Positions 29,613 through 64,000 of a DNA stretch of 64,000 nt are shown piece after piece. This stretch comes from Thiotrichaceae bacterium (GTDB lineage: Bacteria; Pseudomonadota; Gammaproteobacteria; UBA5859): contig JBGTSY010000009.1 in assembly GCA_041940025.1 (NCBI GenBank), positions 9,110 through 73,109 of the forward strand. The letters run 5' to 3'. The notes beneath the pieces are model-generated. The model saw nothing but the letters and a program-made list of their open reading frames with translations, searched no databases and was not told the DNA's origin. The translations under genes were made by a program, and so were the position numbers. How positions within the stretch are numbered: position 1 is the first letter of the stretch; each line of letters starts with the position of its first letter.

Positions 29613-29769
29613 AATGAGAGCTACACATTCAGTGAAGGTTAGAATATCCAGAACGCTAATCGCACCCTGGGTTTGGTCAACAAAGTCTGGAACTTCCGGT
29701 ATGCGCTACTTAACCATTATTCGTAGTAGACAAAGCAAAAGACAAAAATAGTGGGGGGAGGCATGATCA

Positions 29770-41900: not shown

Positions 41901-42214
41901 GGGCCTTGGAAGATCAAGTATTTCGCAATCGCCTGCGCGACCATGGCCTGAATCAAGCGAAGAAGTTTTGCTGGGACGAAACCGCCAAACGCGCGATTGC
42001 GGCGTGGGAGAGCATGCCAGGCCGGAGTCAAGCAGAGTATCTGGACCGATCACTGGCCCACAACCGGCTTCTCGCAGCGCTCGCAATACCGCTCGCGCAC
42101 GCTGGTGAACCCGAATTGGTGGCGTCGTCGCATTGTGTCGCGCAAAACGAAAGCACTGGCATCGAGCGCCAGTTATTTCTTGATGTTTCCGAACTGTGCC
42201 AGCATGACGCCGCC
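38575..42214 (+). repeat. Tandem duplication of about 1.82 kb (38575-40397 and 40398-42214)
   Basis: 38914-40397 aligns with 40731-42214 at a constant 1817-bp offset with high identity. The leading ~335 bp of each unit is more diverged but shares the SEAML-SVISS-SWRIT motif. Confidence 0.9.
38985..40805 (+). CDS. GT4 glycosyltransferase fused to a methyltransferase-type C-terminal tail (chimeric)
   Basis: 'RIVIDMQGAQT..RFRGIGRY' and 'FVFPSWHEGFGLPALEAMACG'-type motifs. The C-terminus 'QRSEAMLNSVISSRSWRIT...LTPRARQIYEDLKAAIEKNKQEAA' parallels the upstream methyltransferase tail. Confidence 0.9.
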   Translation: MMRIVIDMQGAQTASRFRGIGRYTMAFAQAVVRNRGEHEIILALSGLFPETIEPIRAAFDGLLPQENIRTWHAPGPVQEAQPGNDARREAAELIREAFLANLQSDVIHITSLFEGYVDDAVTSIGRFDSAMPVSVILYDLIPLLNPDHYLRPNPRYEQYYLRKVECLKKAALHLAISEFSGREGIDVLGTPDGKTITISTALDSHFQAKTIRDETASELRARFGITRPFVLYTGGADERKNLPRLIEAYAALPASIRETHQLVFAGQMHEVKIAQFKHRARSVGLKDDELVSTGYVTDEDLVQLYHLCQLYVFPSWHEGFGLPALEAMACGAPVIGANTSSLPEVIGFEEALFDPFDVEAISAKLTQALEDEAFRNRLHEHGKNQAEKFSWDDTAKRAIAAWESMPGRSQAEYLDRSLAHNRLLAALAKPLAHAGEPELVAVSHCVAQNERAGIERQLLLDVSELCQHDAAQRSEAMLNSVISSRSWRITRPLQKLMQLFKCLFRLPVRMVVGMVRLPKRVARWFLTKLIAFVMRLDGLKHRARRWLYRYPRLEAHLLAFARACELIHDPTPAPSHPAEAETLTPRARQIYEDLKAAIEKNKQEAA

Positions 42215-44479: not shown

Positions 44480-44521
44480 GTCGCAGAAGATTGAACAAGA
44501 TATTAAAGGAGTGAAGTTCAA

Positions 44522-46888: not shown

Positions 46889-47108
46889 ATTTTCTCCGAG
46901 GGAGATGTAGTAGAAGTTTTACACCAACCACAATTGGGAACGGCACTATATTATCAGTATATTCAATTCAGAAACATGTGGTGCAGATAAAAACTCATTT
47001 GTCAGTTAGTAACTCTATTAAGAAAGATAGACAAACTTCGGCTAAGATCGCACCTTTACTAGAAAAAACAGGTAGAATATTTAGCTTGGCATATCAAGGG
47101 GCGGTTTA

Positions 47109-47960
47109 GTGGCAGTATATCTTTGGTCTGACATCCATGTGGACTTTGCTGAGAATTTAGAGACGATAGAGTCCTTAGAAGGGGCGGGCTATGAGCAGGA
47201 CAGTGTTATCATTGCTGGAGACGTCACCCACGATACACAATTGCTGAAACGTTGCTTGTTATCATTAAATACTTCTTTTAAGCATGTGTTTTTTACCCCA
47301 GGCAATCACGATCTCTGGTTGTACAAAAAAGATTTTCCCTGTTCTGTGTCTAAGCTGAAGTATCTTTTTCGCATGTGTGAAGATATTGAGGTATTCACAA
47401 TAGCGAAATTGCTAACCAATGAAGTAGAGCCGGTGTGGGTTGTGCCACTACACAGTTGGTACTGTAAACCGGAGTGGGGGGAGGAGAGTTTATATATTCC
47501 TAAACAAGATGAAGATCCTGAGCTAAAAATGTGGGCAGATAACGTCCGTGTCAATTGGGATACCCTCACAAATGGCATGACCCCGGACAAATATATGTTG
47601 CGCTTAAATGAACGAAGCCTCACACGGGCCTATTCGCATCAGATCATTAGTTTTAGTCATTTTCTACCGAATCGCGATATTATATTTCCTGATAATAAAG
47701 CGAAAAATTTTATTCCTAGATATGCGCAAGACCCTTTCCCGCAATTTAATTTTACAAGAGTTGCCGGCACCAGTGAGCTGCAAAAACAATTGTCGATAAT
47801 CAAACCGACCCTCCATGCATTTGGTCATCAACATAGGAATAAATCCGTTGCACTACAAGACATACACTACGTGTCTCATTGTATGGGATACCCCACTGAG
47901 GAGTCCGTGGGACCAACCGGCAACAAAAGATTGCCATTGAAAATATGGCCGATGGAATAG
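47109..47960 (+). CDS. Calcineurin-like metallophosphoesterase
   Basis: 'SDIH', 'AGDV', 'PGNHD', 'SHFLP', 'FGHQH' metal-binding motifs. Confidence 0.88.
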   Translation: MAVYLWSDIHVDFAENLETIESLEGAGYEQDSVIIAGDVTHDTQLLKRCLLSLNTSFKHVFFTPGNHDLWLYKKDFPCSVSKLKYLFRMCEDIEVFTIAKLLTNEVEPVWVVPLHSWYCKPEWGEESLYIPKQDEDPELKMWADNVRVNWDTLTNGMTPDKYMLRLNERSLTRAYSHQIISFSHFLPNRDIIFPDNKAKNFIPRYAQDPFPQFNFTRVAGTSELQKQLSIIKPTLHAFGHQHRNKSVALQDIHYVSHCMGYPTEESVGPTGNKRLPLKIWPME

Positions 47961-48086
47961 TGGTTTTTATGAATGCTCGGATGACAGGTACATCGTTTTT
48001 TTACAACACGATTAAATGAACTATTAACTTCGTACTTAGGAATAGAGGCCGTTCGTCATTTGCCACGATTAGAATTAGCCTTAATT

Positions 48087-48533
48087 TTAACCTGGCCAAT
48101 AAAACATCGCTTTTGCCAGTACTACAATGAAGAACATGTGAACAAACACACTAAGGTGGGTGAACTTAAATCGAGTGGAGGACATGCAGCCACTTTCGGC
48201 AGAGAGCATGGCCGTCACAAAATGCACTAAAACGCTCAGTGCTAATAGTATTTTAATCCCAAGTAAAATATGGAAAGTGGATGAGAAGACTTGCGAAAGA
48301 TCCATGCCTCGCACCTGCCAATGGGTGAGAGCCAGACCGGATAAAAAGAGTGTTGCCACCACCCATGGCATCACCCGCTTTGCTCGGGAGATAATACCTT
48401 CCTCGACTAGTGGCATTAATTCCGGCCCAATCTTATTGCGTACACCTTCTAAAATAATAACTTCAAAGAACACCACACCGATAAAAAGCACCGCACATAA
48501 TAGATGAATAATATGAACGGTTCCGTAGTTCAT
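48087..48533 (-). CDS. Small membrane protein (CopD-like)
   Basis: Four TM helices with His residues, 'HLLCAVLFIGVVFFEV' and 'KILLALSVLVHF'. Confidence 0.65.
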   Translation of the reverse strand: MNYGTVHIIHLLCAVLFIGVVFFEVIILEGVRNKIGPELMPLVEEGIISRAKRVMPWVVATLFLSGLALTHWQVRGMDLSQVFSSTFHILLGIKILLALSVLVHFVTAMLSAESGCMSSTRFKFTHLSVFVHMFFIVVLAKAMFYWPG

Positions 48534-48682
48534 TTAAGGTTTTGGCATTTCAAGTTTTTCACGGTCTTTACTGACTAGTCCGCTCAACTCACATAAGAAT
48601 CAAGACAGCAATGCTACGCCCATGTTCCGGGAGTATCGCACTAGACAGTACTCTGGTGATATACCTCATGCCCAATATGATT

Positions 48683-50047
48683 CTAGTTTGAAAACTCTCG
48701 AATCAATTTGCCAATGCTTTCTTTAGCATCGCCGAACAGCATGCGAGTGTTTTCACCAAAGAATAGTGGATTATCCACACCAGAAAACCCAGATGCCATA
48801 GAGCGCTTTAACACAAACACCGTTTGTGCTTTATCTACATTGATCACCGGCATGCCATAAATTGGACTGTTTTCGTTTTCTCTCGCAGAAGGATTCACCA
48901 CATCGTTGGCGCCGATGACAATGGCCACATCCACCGTGTCCATGCGCGGATTAATGTCATCCATTTCTACTAATTGATCGTAGGGGACATCCGCTTCAGC
49001 GAGCAACACATTCATATGACCCGGCATTCTGCCCGCTACTGGGTGAATAGCGAAATTGACTTCTGCACCGTTTTCCTCAAGTAGTTCACAGAGTTCTTTC
49101 ACTACGTGTTGCGCTTGCGCCACTGCCATCCCGTAACCGGGCACAAATACGACGCTGCTGGCAGCTTCGAGGATATAAAAAGCGTCTTCCGCAGTGATGG
49201 GTTTGACGTCGCCTTCGATGGCTTCTTGCTTTTTCACTGCGCCAAAGCCGCTGAAGAGTACATTAGCTAACGAGCGATTCATGGCTTTACACATGATTTG
49301 TGTGAGGATGATGCCGCTGGCACCCACAAGAGAGCCGGCCACAATGAGAAGATTATTATTCACAGCAAATCCTGCGGCGGCCGCCGCGATACCTGAGTAG
49401 CTATTCAATAACGAAATGACCACTGGCATGTCCGCGCCACCGATAGGAATCACCGCCATCACACCTAGCGTTAATGCCAGTGCAATGATTAGAAATAACC
49501 AGAAAGAAGCACCACCGGGGTTGCCGATAAAGATCACACTAGTTAGAAGAATAGCAGCCAACAGTAGGCTATTAGCTAATCGCTGCCCTTCGAAGACGAT
49601 TGGTTTGCCGTCTATTTTTTCACTTAACTTTCCCCATGCGATCAAACTGCCGGAGAACGTCAGACCACCAATCAGGATAGACAGGAGGATAGTCAATGCC
49701 ATAAATGCGTTGATATCTGAATTAAAAAGCGCAGCCCAACCCACAAATAGACTGGCGATACCCCCAAACCCATTGAACAATGCGACCATTTCCGGCATGC
49801 CAGTCATTTGCACCGTGCGTGCTGCATAAGCACCAATACCCGCGCCAACGAGAATACCGATGATGATCCAGTGATAGGCAATGATCTCCTGACTGGTGAG
49901 CGTCAACACCACGGCGATGAACATGCCTAATGCAGAAAGAAAATTACCGCGACGCGCTGTTTCAGGTGATCCCAATAACTTGAGGCCAAAAATAAAGAGC
50001 CCAGCGGAGAGGATGTAAGAAAAATTGATAACTAGTGTATTACTCAT
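48683..50047 (-). CDS. pntB: NAD(P) transhydrogenase beta subunit
   Basis: 'MPEMVALFNGFGG', 'GGADMPVVISLLNSYSG', 'IHPVAGRMPGHMNVLLAEA', 'GANDVVNP'. Confidence 0.97.
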   Translation of the reverse strand: MSNTLVINFSYILSAGLFIFGLKLLGSPETARRGNFLSALGMFIAVVLTLTSQEIIAYHWIIIGILVGAGIGAYAARTVQMTGMPEMVALFNGFGGIASLFVGWAALFNSDINAFMALTILLSILIGGLTFSGSLIAWGKLSEKIDGKPIVFEGQRLANSLLLAAILLTSVIFIGNPGGASFWLFLIIALALTLGVMAVIPIGGADMPVVISLLNSYSGIAAAAAGFAVNNNLLIVAGSLVGASGIILTQIMCKAMNRSLANVLFSGFGAVKKQEAIEGDVKPITAEDAFYILEAASSVVFVPGYGMAVAQAQHVVKELCELLEENGAEVNFAIHPVAGRMPGHMNVLLAEADVPYDQLVEMDDINPRMDTVDVAIVIGANDVVNPSARENENSPIYGMPVINVDKAQTVFVLKRSMASGFSGVDNPLFFGENTRMLFGDAKESIGKLIREFSN

Positions 50048-50337
50048 TTTTTATGCTCAATCTCTTTTTTCTTAAACATTCCCAGCATTCGGTCTGTTAC
50101 CAAATACCCCCCAACCACATTAATGGTGGCAAAGGCCACGGCTATCGTCCCCAGTAAGGTAGCGAATGCGGATTCGCCTGCACCTGCGGACACTAATGCG
50201 CCAACCAGTGTGATTCCCGATATGGCATTGGCCCCGGACATAAGAGGCGTGTGCAAAATAGAGGGAACCTTCGAGATCAGCTCAAAACCTAAAAAGATTG
50301 ATAGCATTAAAATAAATGTGAGAAAGACTACATCCAT
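50044..50337 (-). CDS. pntAB: NAD(P) transhydrogenase alpha subunit, membrane part (PntAB)
   Basis: 'KVPSILHTPLMSGANAISG' and 'INVVGGYLVTDRML'. Confidence 0.95.
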   Translation of the reverse strand: MDVVFLTFILMLSIFLGFELISKVPSILHTPLMSGANAISGITLVGALVSAGAGESAFATLLGTIAVAFATINVVGGYLVTDRMLGMFKKKEIEHKK

Positions 50338-50346
50338 AAGTTGAAC

Positions 50347-51480
50347 CTACTTTCTTAGATTTTTAATGGTTTCATTGACAATCTGTCCACCGTCCGTGAT
50401 CAAACACCCTTTGACAATGTCATCTTCCAAATCGAGTGTGAATGATTTAGCTTCATCATCCCAATATTCACGAACCAGGTTGAACAGGTTAGAGGCATAC
50501 ATGGTACTGGCGTCACGACACACGATAGAGGGTAAATTACCTTGGCCAATCACTGTCACGCCGTTGATGTCGACTTTTTCATTGAGTTTAGAGCCTTCCA
50601 CATTGCCGCCAGACTCTACCGCCATGTCGATGACCACACTGCCGGGCTTCATGGCTTCCACCATATCTTTGGAAACGATCACCGGTGCTCGACGGCCAAA
50701 GACCTGAGCGGTGGTAATGACCACATCAGACTGAGCGATAACCTTCTTCATGCCTTGTCGTTGTAATTCCAATTGCTCTTCTGTGAGTTGCTTGGCGTAT
50801 CCGTCTTTGGTCTGGCCAGTTTCTCCTAAATCGATTTCAACAAATTTTGCGCCTAAGGACTGCACTTGCTCGGCGACTACCGGACGAGTATCAAAGGCTT
50901 CTACTTTTGCACCCAACCGTTTGGCGGTGGCAATCGCCTGAAGTCCGGCGACACCGACGCCAATAATGAATACCTTAGCTGGGGAGAGCGTGCCTGCTGG
51001 CGTCATCATCATGGGGAAGATGCGATCCAGCTCGCTGGCTGCAAGCATTACCATCACATAGCCCGCTAGATTTGCCTGGGAGCTGAGGGCGTCCATTTTC
51101 TGCGCGCGAGTGATCCGAGGGATCATTTCCATGCTGATGGCGCGCACACCCACTTTGGCCATTTCGTCCACTAGATCTAGGTTATTAAAGGGATCGAGAT
51201 AACTGATATGTACGCAATCTTTTTTAAATAAAGCGACTTCAGCGAGTTCCGGTGCGCGCACACGCAGGATTAAGTCACCGCTACCTAGCAGCGCAGTACG
51301 ATCGGTGACTATCTTGGCACCGGCCTCCTCATACTCTTGATCTGAATAATCACACCGCTGCCCTAGTTTAGACTCTACATGAACTTCAATGCCCATTTTG
51401 GTGATTTTCTTCACCACATCCGGCACAAGGGCCACTCGCCGTTCACCTTCAAAGGTTTCCGACGGAACAGATATTTGCAT
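50347..51480 (-). CDS. pntAA: NAD(P) transhydrogenase alpha subunit, soluble dI part (PntAA)
   Basis: 'ERRVALVPD', 'ITRAQKMDALSSQANLAGY', 'GVGVAGLQAIATAKRLGA', 'GGNVE'. Confidence 0.96.
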   Translation of the reverse strand: MQISVPSETFEGERRVALVPDVVKKITKMGIEVHVESKLGQRCDYSDQEYEEAGAKIVTDRTALLGSGDLILRVRAPELAEVALFKKDCVHISYLDPFNNLDLVDEMAKVGVRAISMEMIPRITRAQKMDALSSQANLAGYVMVMLAASELDRIFPMMMTPAGTLSPAKVFIIGVGVAGLQAIATAKRLGAKVEAFDTRPVVAEQVQSLGAKFVEIDLGETGQTKDGYAKQLTEEQLELQRQGMKKVIAQSDVVITTAQVFGRRAPVIVSKDMVEAMKPGSVVIDMAVESGGNVEGSKLNEKVDINGVTVIGQGNLPSIVCRDASTMYASNLFNLVREYWDDEAKSFTLDLEDDIVKGCLITDGGQIVNETIKNLRK

Positions 51481-52618
51481 GGATGATCCCCTCCTGTGCC
51501 ACTTTTTAAGTGGAACTTCTATTCACAGCTCCGTATTGGAACTGCGCTTGTCCGATTTCAGTTTGTGACTCTACATTCGTTAAGCTATTGGATTAATAGC
51601 ACATCTACTTAGTTAAAAAGTAAACAAGCGATCACGTGAACGCGCAATCATACCGAAAGTAGATAGAGGCTTTCAAAGGAAAATTACCTAGCTTGCAAGT
51701 TAAACCTGAAAAAACTAAAAAATAGTCTTTTAATCATGTGGCCCATACCAACACACTGGACTCTAATGGCATTTTATGCTGGCTATGTTCGGCAAAGTCA
51801 ACCACTGAAAGATTAGCGCGATTCTGGATTGGGCTGAGTCCAATGCGGCTTTTCTAATAAAGATCATTACTCAGATTTTGCCACTAGGTTGTTTTCGAGA
51901 TAGATGGTCGATTAGTTTTAGTGATTAAAGAATGGTACTGAATATGAACCTAATTGAAAGCCCATTGCATCCAATCGATATCACTGTGGGTGGTTAAGCC
52001 TGATATCAATATCATCTTGACGGCAACGAAGACATTGAGTGGAGTGTTCTATTCAGATTGGAAACCTTCTAGAGAGTCACATTGCAAAGGTTAATGGATG
52101 GCATGCTAATACTATTTGGCAGCGTGCGTTATGGTGCCAATTCATTTCTTTGTTCAATTTCTTTTTTGGCAGAGAGCATAGGTATACAAGAAAAGCTAGA
52201 ATGCACCGGCCCAATCGTGCAGAGATCGGATCGCTATACTGGCTATTGGTACTGAATGAGTCCGTGGGTTTTATCCGTAGGTGGTGTATTGATGATCATC
52301 GAACGCCGATGGTGGTCAGTAGTGGTAACAGTTCCGCTGCTATCTATCTAGATGCCGCAGGATGAGAAGTCGTTAGCAGTTTAAACTGTTGTCATCAAGA
52401 TCTAAAAACCGGCACAACGAAGCAGCCGTTATGGTTTTTTCTCTCCTACCTGTATATGGCCGATATCGCGATGAGTACGATGGGTGAGGCACAATACATT
52501 TCTCTATCGTTATGTGAAATACTGGGTAGTCGCTGGCAATTGGCTGTACATCGTTTGCTCGGTTTTATTGTGTTACGCTGTTAGGAATAGGTGATGCTGA
52601 CGGTGGCGTTAAGCAAGC

Positions 52619-53275
52619 ATGCATGCAAAGGGGTTAATCATGTCTCATGATCTGGAGCTACTCTATTTTTCTGATCCTATGTGCTCCTGGTGTTGGGGTT
52701 TTTCGCCAATCATGAACAGACTGAAGACGCGATTCGAACAACAGATCCCATGCAGTACCGTGATGGGCGGACTGCATACTGGAGAGAGCCCTGCGCTCGT
52801 TGAGGAGTATCGAAATATATTGCAACAACATTGGCGCGAAGTAGAAGCGAAAACAGGACAACCATTCGATTATCAACGTGCAGCACCATTGGGCTCTGTG
52901 TATAACACTGAACCGCCTAGTCGAGCGTTGGTGTTGGTTCGTCGTTTAGCACCGCACTATGAATTCGAATATCTTTGGTCATTGCAAAAGGCTTTTTATC
53001 AAGATGCATGTGATCTTTCCGAAGTGACTATATTGATTGATCTGGCTAAGGAGTACGGAGTGGAAGAGTCTGCTTTTGTAGAGCGGTTTGATTCGCCCAC
53101 GTTGAAAATGGCTACCAATATGGATTTTCAGCTCGCCCGAGAGATCCAAGCACGTGCATTTCCATGCATTGTATTGCGAGCAGATCATGATTACACTTTT
53201 GTGAGTGTCGGCTATCAGGAATATGAAATGTTGGAGCCCTTGATTGCCGGTTGGTTAGATAAACACACAGTGTAG
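52619..53275 (+). CDS. DsbA-family (thioredoxin fold) protein
   Basis: 'DPMCSWCWGFSP' CxxC and 'YNTEPPSRA'. 'FPCI' cis-Pro loop. Confidence 0.88.
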   Translation: MHAKGLIMSHDLELLYFSDPMCSWCWGFSPIMNRLKTRFEQQIPCSTVMGGLHTGESPALVEEYRNILQQHWREVEAKTGQPFDYQRAAPLGSVYNTEPPSRALVLVRRLAPHYEFEYLWSLQKAFYQDACDLSEVTILIDLAKEYGVEESAFVERFDSPTLKMATNMDFQLAREIQARAFPCIVLRADHDYTFVSVGYQEYEMLEPLIAGWLDKHTV

Positions 53276-53424
53276 CGACATGTTCAAATCGCACTTTTTA
53301 ATTTGCTCCTCTCGTTGGATTGGTTTTAGCTATGTGCTCGGGGTATCATCATTAGCGATCTTTGAGTGACGGATTGATTCACTCAATAGTGAATTCACTT
53401 CTTTTCGCTGTGCTTTATAAAAAT

Positions 53425-53700
53425 AAAGTGACGCATTGCGTGCACATCATAGAGCGCGTCTTCTGCACTCGGGTGACGCCATTCTAACTGCTGTTACAAG
53501 AAGTGAATGCGCCGCAGGCTTTGTATTCCCAATGCTGGGTGTCCCTTTTCAGAGGGGGCTTTTGCGTGAAAAAGTTTAATCACCCCACAACGATCTGCAC
53601 AAGCGGGACTGTCATTCATGTGCTCCATAAATAGTTCTTTACGGAAGTTGTTGCGCTATTTTTCAACCTCACCGGCATCAATCTGTTGAATGCTTATGAG
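53425..53700 (-). mobile_element. IS5-family transposase relic
   Basis: The minus strand reads K*RNNFRKELFMEHM...RRIHFL*QQ...HPSAEDALYDVHAMRHF, matching the IS5 N-terminal signature (LRIHFLQQW..SDP.MEDALY..SMR.F). Confidence 0.75.
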
Positions 53701-53746
53701 CCGGTTTCAGATCGAATCATCTTGCTGTTGGGTGGATCGAAGATGC

Positions 53747-54985
53747 CTATATCAGTTTGGCATTTCGATAACTATAAAGAGAGGGGATCGCGGCGACAGT
53801 AACAGAGACGGCGATGATGGTCAGCAATAGATAGAGACTGTTTCGCGAAAACATATCCACTTCGACATGCACGCCAAATTGAGAGATAAAATAGTCTTGG
53901 AATAGCGTCAGGCAACCAGTGAGCACGGTTGCTGCGAGCACACAACTGACAATAGTAATGAGCAGTGCTTCTAATTCTATTAAAAAGAACAAAAATGATG
54001 CCGGCGCACCGATGACTCGAAGCAGCAAAGTTTCCTGTTGACGCTCACGAATTGAGGATAGCAACATAGCGCTGACGCCTAAACAGGCGGCCATAAAGAC
54101 CAAAGCAGAAACCAGTAGCAGAGTGTTTTCCAGAATGCGCATCATTTGCCAGAGTTCAGTGATCACCACTCCGGGGAGAATGGCAGTCAAAGGTTCGTCA
54201 GCGAATTCGTTTATCTGTCGTTGCACCCCAAAAGTCGCCATTTTGGATTCAAGTCCTAACATGATTGCGGTGATACTCTGGGGTACCAGTGTGTGGTGGT
54301 CAACCTTAGGCCGGTCGTGTCGACTATTCGTAGCCGTGACGCCTGGTGTCCAGTCTAGGTGTATGGCCTCAATGCCTTCTAGGCTGACATGTAACGTTTG
54401 ATCAACGGGCGTGCCGGTAAACGCTAATATACCGACTACAGTAAATGGGAAATCATCGTGTCTACTGAAGCTGGTATCAGCCATGCCATGAGAAAGCGTG
54501 AGTTTGTCACCTAATTGGTAGCCAAGTTGTTTCGCGGCTTCGTGGCCCAACACCACCTCAAAGGGATCCTTAAATGTTTGGCCTTTATCGAACTCCAATT
54601 TGCGCTGTTTGCCATAACTGAACTGTTCAAAATAATCAGTTGTGGTGCCTAAAACACGATAGCCTCGATGTGAATCCCCAAGAGAAATTGGGATGGCCCA
54701 CTTGACTTGATTACTGTTGGCAATAGTTTGGTATGTTTCCCAGCTTATATTGTTGGTAGGCGCGCCAATTCGAAACACGGAATACAACAGCAAATTAAGG
54801 CTTCCCGTTCTGGCCCCAACCACCAGATCAACGCCTGAGACAGTATTGGAAAAATTATCTTTTGCTTGATGGCGAATATGTTCGACTCCCAACAATACAA
54901 AGATACTGACCGTCATTGCGATGAGAGACAACGACACAGACCCCTTACGATCGAGCAGGCTTTTCACCGCGAGCCTGGTAAACAT
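53747..54985 (-). CDS. ABC transporter permease, FtsX/MacB-like (ZrgC-like)
   Basis: 'GVDLVVGARTGSLNLLLYSVFRIG', 'IPISLGDSHRGYRVLGT', 'GTPVDQTLHVSL'. Confidence 0.9.
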   Translation of the reverse strand: MFTRLAVKSLLDRKGSVSLSLIAMTVSIFVLLGVEHIRHQAKDNFSNTVSGVDLVVGARTGSLNLLLYSVFRIGAPTNNISWETYQTIANSNQVKWAIPISLGDSHRGYRVLGTTTDYFEQFSYGKQRKLEFDKGQTFKDPFEVVLGHEAAKQLGYQLGDKLTLSHGMADTSFSRHDDFPFTVVGILAFTGTPVDQTLHVSLEGIEAIHLDWTPGVTATNSRHDRPKVDHHTLVPQSITAIMLGLESKMATFGVQRQINEFADEPLTAILPGVVITELWQMMRILENTLLLVSALVFMAACLGVSAMLLSSIRERQQETLLLRVIGAPASFLFFLIELEALLITIVSCVLAATVLTGCLTLFQDYFISQFGVHVEVDMFSRNSLYLLLTIIAVSVTVAAIPSLYSYRNAKLI

Positions 54986-55668
54986 CAGGCAGCCCCTTCC
55001 AATTGGTTAATCTCGTTTAATGATTTAACCTGTTTAAAATAGGGTGAAAGGGACATATCGTGACTGACAAATACTAAAGTCATACCGGTGTCCGCAACAA
55101 CAGACATTAATAGTTTTAAGAATTCCTCTTTATTAGACGCATCCAAAGATGAAGTCGGCTCATCTGCAATGAGCAGTTGTGGTTTATTGATAAGTGCACG
55201 TGCTATCGCTATCCGTTGCTGTTGTCCGATACTTAAGTGACGAGTCTGACGATGCCAATCTTTTTTTGGAATGTTTAATCTACTTAGCAGAGATTGAATG
55301 TCCTGGTTGCTTGGCGTTACTTTTGTGTGTTTGGAAAACCGACTTGCAAGCTGGGTATTTTCAATTGCGGTGAGATAGGGTATCAAATTAAATTTCTGGA
55401 ACACATATCCTATGTGTTCCGCTCGAAACCGATCTCGCTGTCTCGGGGTCATGATATTCAAATGCTTGCCAAAGACTGTCACCTGTCCCTCGACCGGCAC
55501 AACGAGTCCGCTTATCAATCCTAGCAAAGTAGATTTACCGCCTCCAGAGGGTCCATAGATAAAAATGCGTTCCCCTTCTTCAATGGACCAAGAGGGAATA
55601 TTCAACACTATGTGGTTCGGGTGATTCGGGTAATAAAATTGCAGATGACTAAGTTCTATAGCCTTCAT
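54985..55668 (-). CDS. ABC transporter ATP-binding protein (ZrgB-like)
   Basis: 'GPSGGGKSTLL', 'LSIGQQQRIAIARAL', 'ADEPTSSLD'. Start chosen at ATG 55668. Confidence 0.92.
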   Translation of the reverse strand: MKAIELSHLQFYYPNHPNHIVLNIPSWSIEEGERIFIYGPSGGGKSTLLGLISGLVVPVEGQVTVFGKHLNIMTPRQRDRFRAEHIGYVFQKFNLIPYLTAIENTQLASRFSKHTKVTPSNQDIQSLLSRLNIPKKDWHRQTRHLSIGQQQRIAIARALINKPQLLIADEPTSSLDASNKEEFLKLLMSVVADTGMTLVFVSHDMSLSPYFKQVKSLNEINQLEGAA

Positions 55669-55780
55669 AGTGTCATTTAACTCTACAGTAAATGTCTCGA
55701 ATATCCGGTGGAGCCCGGAAATAATACATTGTATCATTGGTTGTCTGAACCACATACTCATATGTCATTAATCCAAGGCC

Positions 55781-56395
55781 ATGAAACACACATTGACACG
55801 AATATTCATTTTCTTGTTCACCTTGAACCTGGTTGCCTGCGACAAGCTACAGTCTGATCGTGCAAATGAAGACAAACAGGTTGAAGCGCAGCAAACAGAT
55901 CAGGAGTACAAAACCATTGAGTGGTTTGATCTGATGCCACAAGAAGACATTGACGCAATACTCAATCCGCCAGACTACATAACAGAATTGGAGGATGGCT
56001 TTCTTGAAGACCAAATAAGCAATCAGATTAGTAATGCGATTGCATTGGCTAAAGATGATCCCTACCAGCGGGCATTGGTGTCAACAAAAATCATTCCGGA
56101 AATGAATGGCCAGGCGATTCGATTACCCGGATTCATCGTTCCGCTTGAATTTGATGAAGAGCAATTGATTACTCAATTTTTCCTTGTCCCTTATTTTGGT
56201 GCCTGTATTCATGAGCCACCGCCACCACCCAATCAAATTATCTTCGTCAACTATTCTGCTGGGCTACAACTGGATGCGCTATATGAGCCTTTTTGGATTT
56301 CAGGAGTTCTGGCAACCACTTTAGTGGAAAATGAAACTGCTACCGCAGCCTATAGCATGCAGATGGATTCCTACGAAGTTTACTATGAGTATTAA
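55781..56395 (+). CDS. DUF3299 lipoprotein (ZrgD-like)
   Basis: Lipobox 'LVAC', 'WFDLMP', 'LPGFIVPL', 'VPYFGACIHEPPPPPNQII'. Confidence 0.88.
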   Translation: MKHTLTRIFIFLFTLNLVACDKLQSDRANEDKQVEAQQTDQEYKTIEWFDLMPQEDIDAILNPPDYITELEDGFLEDQISNQISNAIALAKDDPYQRALVSTKIIPEMNGQAIRLPGFIVPLEFDEEQLITQFFLVPYFGACIHEPPPPPNQIIFVNYSAGLQLDALYEPFWISGVLATTLVENETATAAYSMQMDSYEVYYEY

Positions 56396-56468
56396 TCAAT
56401 TTATCTTATTCGCCGACAGCAAAATAATTATTGAGCAGGAGGGTCACCCCGACACTTGACGCGGATTA

Positions 56469-56894
56469 TTACGACACAAGATTCTTTTCATCATCGCAAT
56501 CACAGGATGCTTGTTTGTGCTGATGACACAGTCGATAGTTGAATCCGTGCCCAATAGCGATTAAAGCTGCGCCTAATACAGTTAGCGGTTTTTCACTCAC
56601 TTCGCCGATACCGGTTCCTTCCAATAGCAGTGCAGTGATTAACATAGCCAATCCAGTGATACCTAAAATGAGTAATCGATATCTTTTATGTTGTCTACAT
56701 CCTAAGGTGAGGGCATACACGCTGGTAGGAATCACGGCAATTATCATCCAAAGATGAAAGGCTTCATTATCCAGGGGTAACGCCACAGCACTCGGCAACA
56801 CTACCAATAACATCGGGAGGGCCAGGCAATGCAGCGTACACACCATGGATAATCCAATGGCGACTTTATCTGTTAAGGCTACTGTAGTCTTCAT
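56469..56894 (-). CDS. MerC-domain membrane protein
   Basis: 'DKVAIGLSMVCTLHCLALP', 'GCRQH', 'GH..N...C'. Confidence 0.85.
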   Translation of the reverse strand: MKTTVALTDKVAIGLSMVCTLHCLALPMLLVVLPSAVALPLDNEAFHLWMIIAVIPTSVYALTLGCRQHKRYRLLILGITGLAMLITALLLEGTGIGEVSEKPLTVLGAALIAIGHGFNYRLCHQHKQASCDCDDEKNLVS

Positions 56895-57374
56895 TGTTTA
56901 GTATTTTTTTGCTCTAATTGTGCTTCAGCAAAACATAGGTCGCACACATTTCATTTCTATTTGCCCACTGATTTGCCTAAAGCCCGCTTTTCGAACCGTT
57001 TTTTGAAGGTCGGAGTGAGTGGAGGCTTTGATGGTGATTTCTTTGACTTTGTGACAACTGCTGCAAATTAAGAATTGCGGTACCCCATGTACATGATCAC
57101 AACTAATGTGTGAACAGGCAACATACTTATTAGCAAGTTCGAGTTTATGTACTAAAGATTCTGTTTCTAAAAATTCTAGTATTCGGTACACCGACATCGC
57201 AGGAATATTGGCATCGTAGCGTTCTTTGCAACTATCGATCAACTCATAAGCAGAAAGCGCTTTGTCAGAATGAATGAGGCTAGATAATACCTGTTTGCGC
57301 CTTTCTGTTAGGCGCACACCATGGGTGTGACACTGCTTTTCTGCCTGTTCCAGGATTGTGTCTATTTGTTTCAC
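56891..57374 (-). pseudogene. zur: Fur/Zur-family repressor with a C-terminal frameshift
   Basis: 'RLTERRKQVL', 'AYELI', 'SVYRILEFL', 'HKLELANKYVACSH', 'FLICSSC'. The current frame stops at 56925 (MKCVRPMFC*). Adding TG restores MKCVCDLC...KQ*, ending at 56891. Confidence 0.75.
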
Positions 57375-57961
57375 GATATGGATCCAAATTTAATCACCCG
57401 GTTTTTAGGAGTCAGGGTTGTTGAGCCTTGTTGTGAAGCAGAAACCCACATGGCTTTTATGCGGTGAATCTTTGGAAATCTATCAAACAACTTAACCGTA
57501 ATCGCAGATAGTTCAGAAAGTTGATTACAATGGTAGCGGTAAGTGACGGTGATTTCACTGTGACTATTATCGGCGTTCTGCTGAGGGTGGTCGTGTGATT
57601 TAGAATGATTGTGTTTCTCTTTATTATCACTCCCGTCCCTAAGCGATAAAAGATCTGTCTGGGTGTGAGTGTGCTGACAGTCTCCTCCTAAAATTGACAC
57701 TATACCCCTGTGATCTTGAAGCTGTTCTAAGGCAGATTCGACTGCTTGAATATCAGTGCTAGATTGAGCAGGGTGCTCAAAACCCACAATATCAATCGCT
57801 GGGGACTTTAATTGAGCCTCAATCGTTTTTCCCTCCATGGCTATGGTAAGTACGGATAGACCATGAACGTGGGCATCGGCACTGGCTAGAGCCTGGCTGG
57901 CATGAACACTTAGGGTAAAGAGGAGCGCTAGGGTTCTAAGTTTAGATATTCGAATGTTCAT
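57371..57961 (-). CDS. DUF2796 periplasmic zinc-binding protein (ZrgA-like)
   Basis: 'AHVHG', 'SPAIDIVGFEH', His-rich loop, 'HSEITVTYRYHC'. Confidence 0.88.
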   Translation of the reverse strand: MNIRISKLRTLALLFTLSVHASQALASADAHVHGLSVLTIAMEGKTIEAQLKSPAIDIVGFEHPAQSSTDIQAVESALEQLQDHRGIVSILGGDCQHTHTQTDLLSLRDGSDNKEKHNHSKSHDHPQQNADNSHSEITVTYRYHCNQLSELSAITVKLFDRFPKIHRIKAMWVSASQQGSTTLTPKNRVIKFGSIS

Positions 57962-58026
57962 TTGTAAATTTGTTGTCTTCTTGTCAGTACCAGTCGTATT
58001 GATATGCGTTCAGATAGTGAAACGGA

Positions 58027-58044
58027 GATATGTTACAACATATC
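58027..58044. promoter_or_regulatory. Palindromic operator upstream of zrgA (candidate Zur box)
   Basis: GATATGTT-AC-AACATATC, with perfect 8-bp arms, about 65 bp upstream of the DUF2796 start. Confidence 0.6.
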
Positions 58045-58299
58045 AATTAATAGTTGAAGAGAATTTTCTAGAGTCACTGACCATCATAAATAACTACTAA
58101 GCTCAAGACCGTCTATATAGTGTCATACCTTAAGAATATAGAATAAGTAGCTACTTGTTCTCAGCTAGGGCGGTACCCAATGATACCCGATAGGCAGATT
58201 TAACAGCGCTCTGGGCTAGCTTTGACGTTTAAAATTAGATAGTTATATAAATCCAAGAGTGGGACACTGTTCAGCAATTGGCCGGTCTGGTTCTGGGTT

Positions 58300-58680
58300 G
58301 GACTCGTGCATTGAGAATCGTCGTTGCCACAGTTGCCGCGCTACCTGCTTACGGCACTCCTTCATCAGGCGAAATCGCTCACTGCCTAAATTAGGGCGCG
58401 CCATCAAATGAAGGCCATACAAAAGTAGGCTTTCACCCGTTACAGGTTCCTGACTGAGTTGATACGAACGAATCGATGTCGTGCGCGTCAATCGTGAAGT
58501 GCTTCATCTGCACTGGGTGCGGTGGACTTGTACCAATGTGGCAAAATGTGAATGCGCATCTTGGGGTCGATCGCTATCGCTGGGCGCTCGCCTGTAGAGG
58601 CGGCTTTACTGTAAATTTGTTCAATCGTCTGACTCAGATCGGATCAAGAAAGCATTTCGTTATTTTGTTCTAATCTATTA
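58300..58680 (-). mobile_element. Second IS5-family transposase relic
   Basis: The minus strand reads ...IEQIYSKAASTGERPAIAIDPKMRIHILPHWYKSTAPSADEALHD*..RF..., then QEPVTGESLL..HLM in another frame. Confidence 0.65.
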
Positions 58681-59094
58681 AGCGTCCTTTTACAGTATTT
58701 TTTATATGCATGACTTTCAAGAGTGTGCTGTTTCATTTTGTTGATTTACTATGGAGTCGTTTCATTGATTCTCATGTTTTTGCATAGATCGTATATCCTT
58801 AGAATAAGAATTCAGAATTCAATTTATTTGAATCGTTTGCATGATTAAGTATGGGTGGCACAGCTGGTAGAGTGTTTGGCGATGACGGCGCATCACCTTA
58901 TGAAGAACTGCTGACTTTTAGTTAGTCGTCTAGTTTAGAGCGGTAGTGAAACATTCCTAAACAGTAGAAGTGATATCTGTGTGACCTGTTGTATAAAAAC
59001 TATCCAGTTTCGTTGCGTATCGTTTTTTAGTTCATTCACTTTTTAAAAAGCACTATAATTTAGTGGTTAATTATGATTTTGTATCAAATCGTGG

Positions 59095-60450
59095 ATGTGT
59101 GTGATGGAAGCTGTTCCCAGTAGGCCAATACTACTAGCGGTGTCGAATTCGATAAGTGATGACGTTCGATGCAAATTATCAACCGTATTTAAAAATAGTG
59201 AATTGATTATCGATGATCCTTTAGATGAGAATAACTGCGGTCGTCGGATCAGTTATTCTTGGGGGTTTATTTATGTTCCCACTCATTTAGATAGTGCTTG
59301 GATCAGCTGGTCACGAAACCTGTTTCGGAGCAAGGTAGCTCGAAACTGGATTGCAATGTTAGAAGATGTGTTTACCGTCAACGAGCAAAAGTATCAATTC
59401 CTGTCAGTTGACACGATGGGCTACATTCAAATATTCGACGCCCTATCCGATAATTTATTTTCTGCAATCATCACACCCTGGGAACTAAATACCACAAAAA
59501 AGGAGGTTTCCCTTGGTGCCTTGGTAGGAAGAAGTGCCTCCATCGCAAGAGTCAACGAACTCATTGTGAGATTCTCCAAAGTGGATAGTCCTGTCATTTT
59601 GTCCGGAGAAACAGGAACGGGCAAAGAGCTTATCGCAAGAGAGCTTCATCGACGATCACACTACTGTCAGGGGCCTTTCATCGCTTTAAATTGTGGTGCG
59701 ATTCCAGATGAATTATTTGAAGCGGAAATGTTTGGCTACGTTGCCGGAGCATTTACAGATGCAAAAACTGATCGGGAGGGCTGGTTACAGAAAGCGCATA
59801 AAGGTACCCTATTTTTAGATGAGATCGCGGAGTTGTCACTGCGTAGCCAAGCGAAGTTGCTGCGGGTGTTAGAACGAAAAGCCGTTACGCCGATAGGTAC
59901 AAATCAATCATTTGATTTAGATGTGCGTATAGTGGCCGCCTCACATGTTGATTTACGGCAGGCGATAGTGGAAAAGAGATTCCGGGAAGATCTATTCTAT
60001 CGGCTAGATGTGCTACACATCCAAGCACCCCCGCTGAGAGAACGTAGTGAGGATATTTTATTACTTGCATCAAATATATTGAGGCAGTTATGCAACGAAT
60101 TAAATCTTCCTGTACGTCAAATCTGCTTCGAGTCACTGTTTATTCTCACATCCTATACGTGGCCGGGAAATGTGCGAGAGTTAATCAATAAATTGAAGCA
60201 AATTTGTATCTTAAGTGACGCATTGGTACTAGAAGCAAAGCATCTAGAAATTTTTGGATTACCGACATTTGCTCTCAACCAGTTCAACTCAGTACCTCTT
60301 CTTGATACGGCAATATCACGCGCAGAACTCAACGCGGTGGCTGAAGCACTAAGTGCGACAGGAGATAACATCTCAGCATCTGCGCGTTTATTGGGTGTTT
60401 CCCGAATGACTCTTTATAGATTAATTAGAAAACACAAAATCATTTTGTAA
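59095..60450 (+). CDS. Sigma54-dependent enhancer-binding activator (atypical N-terminus, AAA+, Fis-type HTH)
   Basis: Walker A 'GETGTGKE', 'GAFTDA', Walker B 'LFLDEI', 'FREDLFYRL', 'WPGNVREL', HTH 'NISASARLLGVSRMTLYRLI'. Confidence 0.93.
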   Translation: MCVMEAVPSRPILLAVSNSISDDVRCKLSTVFKNSELIIDDPLDENNCGRRISYSWGFIYVPTHLDSAWISWSRNLFRSKVARNWIAMLEDVFTVNEQKYQFLSVDTMGYIQIFDALSDNLFSAIITPWELNTTKKEVSLGALVGRSASIARVNELIVRFSKVDSPVILSGETGTGKELIARELHRRSHYCQGPFIALNCGAIPDELFEAEMFGYVAGAFTDAKTDREGWLQKAHKGTLFLDEIAELSLRSQAKLLRVLERKAVTPIGTNQSFDLDVRIVAASHVDLRQAIVEKRFREDLFYRLDVLHIQAPPLRERSEDILLLASNILRQLCNELNLPVRQICFESLFILTSYTWPGNVRELINKLKQICILSDALVLEAKHLEIFGLPTFALNQFNSVPLLDTAISRAELNAVAEALSATGDNISASARLLGVSRMTLYRLIRKHKIIL

Positions 60451-60662
60451 AGAGCGCTTGTCGACTCTCTGTTTGATTCTAGGAATGGAGATCCAAAATG
60501 AATTCGTGCGTCACTCGCTTGTCACCTTCTCTTTATTAACAAGAGATTACAAATTTACACCTTGGTAGTATTTTAGAAATTAACTATAACTATTTAATTA
60601 GGTCACAACTATGCGGTCGATCAGTAAAAATAATCGCCGGAATAAGAGTGGTGTGAATTGGG

Positions 60663-60680
60663 TGTCTCAATATTGATACA
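60663..60680. promoter_or_regulatory. Candidate upstream activator sequence (enhancer)
   Basis: TGTCTCAAT-ATTGATACA, an 18-bp palindrome with 1 mismatch (TGT-N12-ACA), about 155 bp upstream of the -24 element. Confidence 0.5.
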
Positions 60681-60833
60681 GATTAAAATAAGTATCTAAC
60701 TGATTGTTTATAAATGCTATGTTGATTTAATTGAATAAATAGATGTTTGGGTTTTTAACGGTATATTAGATATTTTGAAAAAAATCCAGTTATCTTGGCA
60801 ATATTATTATAAAAAACAATAAGATATCATTCA

Positions 60834-60848
60834 TGGCATGAATTTCGC
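60834..60848 (+). promoter_or_regulatory. Sigma54 (-24/-12) promoter
   Basis: TGGCATGAATTTCGC has exact GG-N10-GC spacing and lies 40 bp upstream of ATG 60889. Confidence 0.7.
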
Positions 60849-60888
60849 CCTCTGCGGTAACTGAGTAAAAAGTTATGGGGGCAAATGC

Positions 60889-61656
60889 ATGAAACCGGTA
60901 TTATCCATCACGGTATTCCGTAGTGCGATTACAGATCTTAACAATCTGAGTCACTCGAAATACCTAGTTGTGTTGTTCTGCTACACGATTCTAGCTAGGA
61001 CTGTTCTAGCCGGATCTGACGTCCCAACATCTCAATTATCTCCCGCTAGCCATGACACTCTCACCACTTTAGTCACTCTCGTTGGTGCAAATACCACAGC
61101 CAGTAGCCACACCAGTCGTATCGAAGGCGATTCGTTTTCCGGGGTGAGCGGTATCGTAGAAGTCAATGTCACCGGCGGTGATCTTTCCATTCAACAAAAT
61201 TCAGCTGCCATTGTGGAATCCAGTGCCTACGGATTGGCATTCGTAGAGGCCTATCAGAAACGACAAGTAGACGAGCTTAGTCGATCAACAACCAATGGGA
61301 TGCGGTCGGATGCAGCGATAAAAGATAATGCATTTGACCATGCACTCGGATTGATCATGGTAAACCAGTCCAGTGGTGGTGAGAACACTCAAGTAAATGG
61401 TGCCGCTATCGCCTTAGGAGGGCTGGTAGCTATTGGCGGCGTGCAGCTAAATGACAACACCTTGGACCAATCCTACGGTATTGCAACACCGATCTCCGCA
61501 GGGGTAGGTGACGGAGGCAGCGTGAATAACGTTGATACGACCACGATTGACCCGAGCAGTTTTACCGGCGCCAGAGGTATTTTTCTAATTAATCAAGTAT
61601 CGGGTAGAAACAATTACTCGGGCAATAGTTTTACTCTGACTACGTCTCCTAAGTAA
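60889..61656 (+). CDS. FapB-like amyloid nucleator/minor subunit
   Basis: Hydrophobic N-terminus and three imperfect repeats: 'SRIEGDSFSGVSGIVEVNVTGGDLSIQQNS', 'AAIKDNAFDHALGLIMVNQSSGGENTQVNG', 'TTIDPSSFTGARGIFLINQVSGRNNYSGNS'. Confidence 0.75.
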   Translation: MKPVLSITVFRSAITDLNNLSHSKYLVVLFCYTILARTVLAGSDVPTSQLSPASHDTLTTLVTLVGANTTASSHTSRIEGDSFSGVSGIVEVNVTGGDLSIQQNSAAIVESSAYGLAFVEAYQKRQVDELSRSTTNGMRSDAAIKDNAFDHALGLIMVNQSSGGENTQVNGAAIALGGLVAIGGVQLNDNTLDQSYGIATPISAGVGDGGSVNNVDTTTIDPSSFTGARGIFLINQVSGRNNYSGNSFTLTTSPK

Positions 61657-61742
61657 GGTGTAGTCGGAGTAAAAATTGTTTGCTCATACGGGGCAAGCTT
61701 TTTTTCTGTTCATAAATTACCAACAATGAGGAGTACAAGTAA

Positions 61743-63563
61743 ATGAAATGCAAACGTTTACCTTTAGCTATTGCAGTTGCAAGCGCGATGGGCGCAGGTG
61801 TGGCAAGTGCAGACGAAGGCAATAGAGGTGACTACGAAAAGAGCAATATTCACATCGATAAAGATGTGGATGTAACCCATGAACTGCACCACAAAGGAAA
61901 GATCTATACGGCAGGAGTCGTCTTGGTGGATTCCACGGCAACGGCATTGTCTGAAGTGGAACAAAAGGTGAAGGAAAATACGTTATCTGAACAGCAAATG
62001 TTCATTGAGCCCAATTCTGAGAATCCTGTTGTGATGTTTGGAGGCAGTGTTGACGATCAAAACAGCGCTACTTTGTCTGGTAATGTGTTAAAAGGCAGTA
62101 CAGGTAACGCGGGCGTTAATATCGTTGGTGGTTCCACCAATGCTCAGCAAAACTCTGTTTCTATCGCAGAAGGCGATTCGCGCGGGCATGTAGTGGACAT
62201 ACCAATTGAGTTCAGTACTAGTGAAACCTTCAAAGACAATTACAGCGATTCAGAAACCTGGAGCACGGAGTCTTGGGATAACCACCAAGTGACCCATACC
62301 TCAGATACTGCCACCAGTAGCAGCAGTAGTTCGTTAAGCGTAGAGTTGGATATCGACGAGCATGGCGGCATGATCAATGCTGACGTGGGCGGCGCTACAA
62401 CTGTCGATGCAAGCGCGGAAGCGGGAGACGGTGTTGGGCCGGAAGGGCAGATCTCAAAATCAGTTGAAGGTAATGTCAATGGTACGGTAGAAAACAGCTA
62501 TGTGTCTGTGCAAACTTCTGGCGAATTTGACAGTAACATTGGAGGCGATGCGCACAGTGGAGAAGGTAGCAAAGATCTAAACTCTGTTTCTGCTGCGGGC
62601 GAGTTTGAGACAGATTCGAAGCTATACGTCGAGGATGGATCCATCTCCTACATGGTCGAGGGAGAAGATGAGCAATCTTGGGAAAGTGACTCCACACACA
62701 CAGATGGTACTGTCTCTGTAACGGATGGTGAGTCGTCTACCGAATATGTGGATGAGTCTGACTACTCCTTTAATACTGAGTTTGATATCAATCTGATGTT
62801 CGGTGGGGCAGCAGAGGCCGAAACCTTTGCCAAACAGAAAGTCGCATATAACCAGAATCCTTCTTCTGGATACAATATTGCTTCAATCTCCGATGACGTG
62901 GCAATGAATTTTAGCGGAAACATTGGAGTCAATGTGGTTGCTGGGCACAACAACGCTCAAGCTAATCAGTTAGCACTTGCTGAAAATGATGGGGTAATGG
63001 CTTTAGCGACTGCAACCTCTTATCAATCTGTTTATGGGAATGTCTCACAAGGTCAAGGCTATATCGCAGTTGTGGATGAAGAATATTCACTATCTGGTGA
63101 TGTCGATGGCTATACTGTTGGTTACTCAGATCAACTGGGCGATGTCTATCCAGACACATGGGAAGGCAAACCTGGGCCTAACCCACATCCGACCATCGGA
63201 AAAATGATTGGCCACAATGACATCGATAGCGATACTCAAGGTGCGCAACAAGTGGTGGTTATGGCCAATGGTACACAGAAAGTAGTACAACGTGGGTATG
63301 TATTACAACCGGGCGAATACTATCTCGCTGAAGGTGGGGCCTACGTTTACAAAGAAGTTGGCGCTGTAGACTTAGGTGAAGTCACCTTGTCTGGTACCCT
63401 CAAGCATCTTGATATTGTTGAATATCAGGTTGTAAATGATGCGTCCATCTCTGGCAATGCTTTCATGGGAGCGAAAGGCAATATCGCTGTTAACGTTGCT
63501 TCTGGTAGCGGTAATGCGCAAGGCAATGCTTTGGCTATTTCAAGCATGAATGCGCCAGAATAA
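61743..63563 (+). CDS. FapC-like major functional-amyloid subunit with very long linkers
   Basis: Signal peptide and three ~37-aa repeats (N.A.(L/I)S.....(S/K)GN(A/I)(G/A)VN(I/V)..G..NAQ.N) at about 62055, 62871 and 63432. Strong RBS (gaggag). Confidence 0.8.
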   Translation: MKCKRLPLAIAVASAMGAGVASADEGNRGDYEKSNIHIDKDVDVTHELHHKGKIYTAGVVLVDSTATALSEVEQKVKENTLSEQQMFIEPNSENPVVMFGGSVDDQNSATLSGNVLKGSTGNAGVNIVGGSTNAQQNSVSIAEGDSRGHVVDIPIEFSTSETFKDNYSDSETWSTESWDNHQVTHTSDTATSSSSSSLSVELDIDEHGGMINADVGGATTVDASAEAGDGVGPEGQISKSVEGNVNGTVENSYVSVQTSGEFDSNIGGDAHSGEGSKDLNSVSAAGEFETDSKLYVEDGSISYMVEGEDEQSWESDSTHTDGTVSVTDGESSTEYVDESDYSFNTEFDINLMFGGAAEAETFAKQKVAYNQNPSSGYNIASISDDVAMNFSGNIGVNVVAGHNNAQANQLALAENDGVMALATATSYQSVYGNVSQGQGYIAVVDEEYSLSGDVDGYTVGYSDQLGDVYPDTWEGKPGPNPHPTIGKMIGHNDIDSDTQGAQQVVVMANGTQKVVQRGYVLQPGEYYLAEGGAYVYKEVGAVDLGEVTLSGTLKHLDIVEYQVVNDASISGNAFMGAKGNIAVNVASGSGNAQGNALAISSMNAPE

Positions 63564-63578
63564 ATAGTTAGGGAGGTT

Positions 63579-63606
63579 GAGGAGCATCGTTTACATGATG
63601 CTCCTC
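63579..63606 (+). terminator. Stem-loop after the FapC-like gene
   Basis: Perfect 10-bp stem GAGGAGCATC/GATGCTCCTC with an 8-nt loop, followed by a T-rich tract. Confidence 0.7.
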
Positions 63607-63660
63607 CATTTTATTTAGAACGAATTACGCTCGTTCATTATAATTATTAGTTTTTATACA

Positions 63661-64000
63661 ATGTGCATATCGAATCGAAACATACATCCGGCGACAGTTT
63701 TATTGTTGCATGCGGCTCTGTTGGTCTGTCTGTCGTTTAGCTTAAGTGCAGAAGAGTCAAAAGACTCTCAGGTTGTCCTATATCACCCTTCTGGTTTTGG
63801 TGTGGAGACCAAATCAGTGGTGAGTATGCGTGATAATAAATTCGACAATCTAGTAGAACAACAGTTTGATTTTAGCTGTGGCGCCGCTGCAGCCAGCACT
63901 ATCCTACAGTACGCCTATAATATGAATGTGACCGAGTTGGATGTCATTATGGGATTATCTAAGGTGGCTAATACCGACATTGCGAAACAGAAAGGGTATT
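63661..64000 (+). CDS. C39-family peptidase (FapD-like), truncated by the window end
   Basis: Open frame from ATG 63661 with a signal-like N-terminus, then 'VEQQFDFSCGAAAASTILQY', the C39 catalytic Cys motif. Not in the ORF track because there is no stop in the window. Confidence 0.85.
   Translation, partial: MCISNRNIHPATVLLLHAALLVCLSFSLSAEESKDSQVVLYHPSGFGVETKSVVSMRDNKFDNLVEQQFDFSCGAAAASTILQYAYNMNVTELDVIMGLSKVANTDIAKQKGY

Follow-up and report, generated by a model that had tools for sequence, protein, structure and literature searches.

A Zur-type zinc repressor encoded in the DNA of an uncultured marine gammaproteobacterium ends short of the second of its two CxxC motifs, which raises the question of whether the shortened gene is a real allele and, if so, what it would do to the zinc genes around it. 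The gene lies in a stretch of DNA of 64,000 nucleotides (hereafter the window), and the original prediction, made from the letters of that stretch, held that a 2-bp loss at a TG run had deleted the motif. This was borne out by the sequence as read and by the alleles of sister strains, and we consider it probable that this organism has recently lost the function of an autoregulated Zur-type zinc repressor through a frameshift.

A frameshifted zur-like gene

The zur-like gene (56925–57374, minus strand; 149 aa) runs from a GTG start at 57374 to a TGA stop at 56927–56925. Its last codons (56951–56925, minus strand) read AAA TGT GTG CGA CCT ATG TTT TGC TGA, and the open reading frame accordingly ends KCVRPMFC. 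The 2-bp loss falls in a (TG)3 run, TGTGTG, at 56943–56948 (minus strand), which is (TG)4 in intact sister strains; relative to the window, 'CA' was inserted behind 56942 (plus strand) in contigs of X5, X6, X7, X14 and X16. The adjacent position 56941 was also substituted, with G (minus strand) in the window and A in every intact allele of the variable-site table. An out-of-frame remnant of the ancestral C-terminus (VCDLCFAEAQLEQKNTKQ, followed by a stop) occupies 56891–56947 of the minus strand, its frame being entered at 56947, and its TGA (56893–56891) overlaps the ATG (56894–56892) of an open reading frame of the MerC family.

Adding one TG to the window gene gave an ending KCVCDLCF...KQ, the TGA of which shares bases with the merC-like ATG, so the restored frame was as originally described. 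The intact ending proposed with it differed from the real one, however, as the sister allele reads TGT GTG TGC AAC and encodes CVCNLC, rather than ending in GAC and encoding CVCDLC. A 2-bp gap accompanied by a changed base at 56941 thus represents a small complex deletion-substitution and not the clean loss of one TG unit.

The window protein belongs to the Fur family (Pfam PF01475, 49.7 bits vs. a cutoff of 23.1, E 4.9e-13, profile positions 2–120 of 121). Its best NCBIfam match was the Zur equivalog NF008646, yet the score was below threshold (85.6 bits vs. 167), which points to a distinct Zur-like subfamily. The winged helix-turn-helix DNA-binding domain, the sensing-site residues H76, C87, H96 and E112, and the first CxxC (C104, C107) were all kept. 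The frame is shifted after codon 144, replacing the last 17 residues (CNLCFAEAQLEQKNTKQ) with RPMFC; C145, C148 and the C-terminal helix are missing, and R145 and F148 occupy the positions of the two cysteines. A Cys4 structural zinc site composed of two CxxC motifs was thus present in the intact sister allele (P0121) and lacking in the window protein. Rescue of the C-terminus by a +1 or programmed ribosomal frameshift was considered and rejected, as the C-terminus lies in one frame in all relatives and sister strains and no slippery heptamer was seen by eye at GTG CGA C.

Reality, distribution and origin of the lesion

The lesion is a genuine allele and not an assembly error. The deletion was present in contigs of X1, X2 and X8, which derive from three samples of study P1 and were separately assembled (Logan; depth 8.4, 5.8 and 4.1), as well as in a second NCBI MAG (GCA_041941165.1; L087). 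Three further records, X4, X3 and X9, appeared to be duplicates by run size, X3 and X9 also by their identical contigs. We rejected L087 as a second deletion haplotype, which its 7 mismatches might have indicated, because the differences consisted of a run of N, and it therefore has the window haplotype. An error in an organism that truly carries (TG)4 and an intact zur, which had been allowed for at the outset, would be in keeping with the proneness of dinucleotide runs to miscalls, with the low depth of the deletion runs (4–8x) and with the origin of all carriers in one study. Nevertheless, the independently assembled contigs of the three runs and the second MAG settled the matter against sequencing error. 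In addition, the same adjacent substitution was always present, which a slippage miscall would not yield, and the remaining 17 kb agreed throughout with the independently assembled sequence of another study, which argues against an error-prone assembly. An artefact is thus highly improbable.

The intact allele was found in X5 (study P2), X6 and X7 (P3), X14 (P4) and X16 (P6), corresponding to at least four other studies. Its product P0121, a 161-aa member of the 90% cluster of the window protein that ends KCVCNLCFAEAQLEQKNTKQ, was encoded by six Logan contigs, each from a different run. The stop codon of zur overlapped the start of merC in each of these contigs, and the ATGA overlap postulated for the ancestral frame was therefore seen directly. 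Each run gave a single allele and none gave contigs of both, as read from assembled contigs, which drop minor variants and might conceal a minority of intact alleles in the P1 samples. Hence the deletion is one haplotype from one study, recovered in several independent assemblies. A scan of JGI metagenomes for either allele gave zero matches. Single-protein searches of GTDB genomes gave no close relatives, the species being without a representative there, and its PntB was at most 74% identical to those of Halieaceae, Spongiibacteraceae and similar genomes.

One intact strain, L001, was sampled in a different study's plastisphere metagenome. When compared by blastn with window positions 46891–64000, it differed over 17,112 bp by one mismatch and one 2-bp gap, which were adjacent to each other at 56941–56943 (intact allele, TGTGTGTGCAAC; window, TGTGTGCGAC). 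The more divergent intact strains (99.5–99.7% identity) all had A at 56941 as well. Since all intact strains carry A, the window state is derived, and comparison of the alleles indicates that both changes almost certainly arose together (TGTGCA to TGCG). The remnant frame had undergone no further decay and the haplotype was identical to L001 outside the lesion, which suggests that the event was recent. At 27–36 kb, X5 differed from the window by about 0.5%, and the strains are thus better regarded as mosaics than as clones. The GTGTGCG of the lesion (56941–56947) recurs about 380 nt upstream in the same gene (57318–57324; CAT GGT GTG CGC CTA). We gave no weight to this copy as a template for the complex change, given that chance alone would place a matching 7-mer within 1 kb in about 12% of cases.

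The original prediction had also offered a reversible slippage switch, in which the TG run would toggle zur ON and OFF as a contingency locus. As in such loci, a frameshift within a dinucleotide repeat turns the gene off; slipped-strand mispairing is a plausible origin of the lesion, and two tract lengths exist within the species. However, the window tract is only 3 units long and that of the sister strains 4, whereas known dinucleotide contingency tracts are far longer. The OFF allele also carries the adjacent base change, and a regained TG would give CVCDLC and not the parental CVCNLC. Moreover, the OFF state was confined to a single haplotype from one study, every other strain being ON, and no mixed population was apparent among the contigs. 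Finally, 80 relatives encoded the motif by varied codons with no conserved repeat. A switch of this kind was therefore unsupported, and we give it very little credence.

Other differences between the strains were seen elsewhere in the window. In X5 and X6, 'CA' was inserted behind 34148, between open reading frames, just past a TAG and inside a GGGGGAG stretch. In X5, one base was absent at 29753, in a G-run just upstream of the open reading frame that starts at 29770. Neither indel appears to break a gene. The block at 36000–44500 had a high GC content (0.57–0.58 vs. about 0.45) and encodes a Wzm/Wzt-type ABC transporter, an FkbM methyltransferase and large GT4 glycosyltransferases, a gene content indicative of a polysaccharide (O-antigen-like) cluster. 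Contigs of X6 showed skips and rearrangements in this block, indicating that the cluster varies between strains.

Conservation and role of the lost motif

A homologue search covering 5.8 billion proteins returned 2006 matches, among which 119 homologues were listed, the window's own protein being excluded. All 119 end in E[ML]NC[LIV]CxxC followed by 1–15 residues, and the final CxxC was likewise kept in each of 80 loci from GTDB species representatives. The original prediction would have been undermined had homologues naturally ended in the short frame, and this was not the case in either set; those homologues that are 149 aa long instead have the ending ...CLCxxCA. On these alignments, the absence of the motif from the window protein is far beyond chance.

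The lost residues are those expected of structural-zinc ligands. Among solved structures, the best sequence matches were to the Zur proteins of Xanthomonas campestris (XcZur; PDB 7DH7/7DH8) and E. coli (EcZur; 4MTD), with E values of 5.9e-20 and 8.6e-18, respectively. In the resulting alignment, C104 and C107 of the intact protein corresponded to EcZur C103 and C106, and C145 and C148 to EcZur C143 and C146; C145 and C148 of P0121 also fell on the second CxxC of XcZur (Xanthomonas Zur C165/C168). The sensing ligands H76, C87, H96 and E112 aligned with EcZur H77, C88, H96 and E111 and were invariant in family alignment A1. Both CxxC motifs and the H/C/H/E sensing ligands of the intact protein thus line up with those of the two characterised repressors, although identity is only about 30–34%. 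The likeness would extend to function, as an autoregulated repressor of zinc-uptake genes acting through a palindromic operator is predicted here. In contrast to XcZur and EcZur, the window subfamily carries one more cysteine (CxCxxC), its candidate operator is shorter (8-2-8, with the core ATGTT-NN-AACAT), and the window allele lacks the second CxxC altogether.

Structure prediction agreed with this assignment. The top 50 PDB matches of an AF2 model of the intact allele were all Fur-family chains, with EcZur 4mtd and XcZur 7dh8 ranked first, and the model had the two-domain Fur fold (N-terminal winged helix plus C-terminal dimerisation domain), albeit with high confidence only in the N-terminal domain. 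A helix at 146–160, beginning at the CxxC, was modelled in the intact protein and was absent from the model of the truncated protein. As the dimerisation domain had a pLDDT of about 50–69 in the models of both alleles, they are useful only for the loss of the C-terminal helix.

According to the literature, the four cysteines of Fur-family proteins are ligands of a structural zinc that resists EDTA and gives the dimerisation domain its organisation. The role attributed to the two CxxC motifs in the original prediction, as ligands of a structural zinc needed for dimerisation and DNA binding, was upheld by the alignment to EcZur and XcZur and by published ligand substitutions (PMC8216289, PMC6103462). 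Substitution of any one of the four structural-zinc (site-1) ligands of XcZur abolishes DNA binding (PMC8216289), and EcZur C103S and ScZur C90S neither dimerise nor bind DNA (PMC6103462). Loss of a Cys4 ligand therefore cost DNA binding in all three proteins and dimerisation in EcZur and ScZur, and the window allele, judged by its coding sequence, would be a natural equivalent of such mutants that is short of two ligands and the helix. The laboratory mutants are single substitutions tested biochemically, whereas the window allele arose in nature by a frameshift, has 5 new residues as its tail and is known from its sequence.

The new tail itself suggests a way in which the truncated protein might still work, fully or partly, such that the change would be nearly neutral. 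The cysteine two residues before the final CxxC, C143, was retained, and this position is nearly invariant among the 80 GTDB relatives (C in 76, S in 2 and G in 2); the shifted frame also ends in a new cysteine, C149. A zinc site might be made up of C143 and C149 together with C104 and C107, or a weak dimer might repress, and the DNA-binding domain and sensing-site residues are untouched. However, the spacing of the CxxC was invariant in 80/80 relatives, and the presence of G or S in place of the first cysteine in 4 of them indicates that C143 is not an essential ligand. As described above, single site-1 ligand substitutions already abolish function in XcZur, EcZur and ScZur, and in the window protein the C-terminal helix is wholly lost in addition. 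We consider residual function quite unlikely.

The probable zrgA-zur-merC operon and the predicted effect of the lesion

The zur-like gene is the second of three tightly linked genes on the minus strand. The first, zrgA (57371–57961), encodes a ZrgA-family zinc uptake protein (Pfam PF10986, E 5.9e-46), with an NCBIfam ZrgA match below the equivalog cutoff (118 bits vs. 185), and its stop codon overlaps the zur GTG start (GTGA). The third (56469–56894) encodes a MerC-family membrane protein of 141 aa (Pfam PF03203, E 2.4e-30); its start is coupled to zur by the ATGA in intact strains and in the window lies 30 nt past the premature zur stop. A merC homologue followed zur in 42 of the 80 relatives, and zrgA preceded zur in 35.

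A candidate Zur operator, GATATGTTGTAACATATC, was located 66–83 bp upstream of the zrgA ATG. It is a perfect 8-2-8 palindrome (GATATGTT-GT-AACATATC; 58027–58044, inverted repeat I2), and the motif (consensus ATGATATGTTRTAACATATCAT) recurred beside zur or beside zrgA at most of the loci from the 80 relatives. With a position weight matrix derived from the relatives' sites, the window palindrome scored 28.3 bits, compared to a maximum of 23.5 and a mean of 12.5 in shuffled sequence. Scanning the window with this matrix gave no further site above chance, the best scores in the ABC/DUF3299 intergenic region (9.7 and 8.6 bits) being within the shuffle range. When the E. coli/Vibrio-type Zur box (TGTTATANTATAACA) was searched for with as many as 3 mismatches allowed, 2 matches were obtained vs. 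2.4 expected, a chance-level result, and a sigma-70 promoter scan gave no consensus promoter overlapping the palindrome. From the arrangement of genes and operator, zrgA-zur-merC is probably a self-repressed, translationally coupled operon. The expectation that the zinc genes would be constitutive is consequently plausible for these three genes, which alone lie downstream of a strong conserved candidate operator, and did not extend to the ABC and DUF3299 genes, for which no significant box was detected. RNA runs of study P1 contained zero words of the locus.

The latter genes lie beyond merC. Based on Pfam and NCBIfam matches, they comprise a MacB/FtsX-type permease (53747–54985, minus strand) and an ABC ATPase (54985–55761, minus strand), both with a putative role in zinc transport, and a DUF3299 gene as a putative zinc-transport neighbour (55781–56395, plus strand). 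The mechanically called ATPase frame opens at 55761, which leaves only 20 bp before the divergent DUF3299 gene; the conserved protein has MKAIELSHL as its first residues, so that the true start is probably near 55668 and the intergenic region probably about 110 bp. With the zrgABCDE zinc uptake locus of Vibrio, this region has in common a ZrgA-family gene, a paired ABC ATPase and permease, a DUF3299 gene and an adjoining candidate Zur box; ZrgA and its control by Zur have been described (PMC9817125, PMC6103462). Unlike in Vibrio, zrgA is separated from the transporter genes by zur and a MerC-family gene, both of them part of the operon, and the transporter genes have no significant box.

The MerC-like protein contains the motif CTLHC and ends in a tail rich in Cys, His and Asp (CHQHKQASCDCDDE), and on sequence grounds it may be a Zur-controlled metal importer. 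In the literature, we found nothing specific on a link between MerC and Zur or on natural zur frameshifts, nor an assigned role in zinc uptake for the MerC-family member of this module. On the other side of the locus, a sigma-54 activator gene (59095–60450) is followed by FapB/FapC-family functional-amyloid genes (60889–61656 and 61743–63563), and a peptidase C39 gene was found further on past the Fap-type genes in sister contigs. The region 59095–63563 thus resembles a Fap amyloid operon adjoining the zinc locus.

A small complex mutation at the short (TG)4 run, consisting of a 2-bp loss and an adjacent A-to-G change in one haplotype, deprived Zur of both cysteines of the second CxxC and of the C-terminal helix that bears them. 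These cysteines would normally join C104 and C107 in a Cys4 structural zinc site that stabilises the dimerisation domain. By analogy with the characterised Zur proteins, a repressor with no structural site would be expected to fail to dimerise and to bind the palindrome at 58027–58044, and zrgA-zur-merC would then be transcribed regardless of zinc. At the same time, ribosomes would stop 30 nt before the merC-like ATG and not on it, which would weaken translation of merC. No Shine-Dalgarno sequence was seen by eye in the 20 nt before this ATG, and the output of MerC-like protein per transcript may thus drop. Most likely, the repressor is inactive, the operon is derepressed and the translational coupling of zur to merC is lost.

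Such a loss might still be silent. A second Zur copy elsewhere in the genome could act on the same operator, or zinc-scarce seawater could leave Zur unmetallated in any case, and the gene would then be a neutral, drifting pseudogene. Several relatives do have two copies of the Zur subfamily, and the lesion is very young, with an undecayed remnant frame and a single haplotype, as expected of a drifting variant. Two loci each were present, for example, in MAGs PL25a_bin.99, PL25a_bin.29, PL25b_bin.18 and IP29b_bin.56; the paired loci were L027/L046, L045/L053, L052/L074 and L054/L073, and Hahella chejuensis also has two copies (P0079, P0085). The two-copy genomes suggest that the paralogues have specialised, one perhaps acting globally and the other being tied to the operon. 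On the other hand, the gene was intact in all other strains and relatives, arguing for purifying selection, and the 64-kb window contained no paralogue. We regard a loss with no consequence as a minor possibility, albeit one to be reckoned with.

A knockout selected in the P1 population is a tentative and still less likely extension of the loss of function that we favour. Constitutive expression of the ZrgA/MerC-type uptake genes could pay under chronic zinc scarcity, and selection would explain why the lesion is the sole difference in 17 kb from a strain of another study. If this were true, it would represent an in-situ regulatory loss of function sweeping a wild marine bacterium, and it would suggest that the MerC-family protein, so far uncharacterised, imports zinc under the control of Zur.

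Taken by itself, the lesion is a loss-of-function mutation of an ordinary sort, and the regulator family that it affects is well understood. The locus in which it occurred belongs to a conserved module that is widespread in marine Gammaproteobacteria (window 56469–58044; loci L007–L086) and comprises zrgA, zur with a CxCxxC tail, merC and an 18-bp palindromic operator. The haplotype and its intact counterpart thereby constitute a natural experiment, in that the two wild strains are the same over 17 kb but for the structural zinc site of their Zur-type repressor. Metagenomes or metatranscriptomes that contain both strains could thus show which genes the repressor controls at sea.
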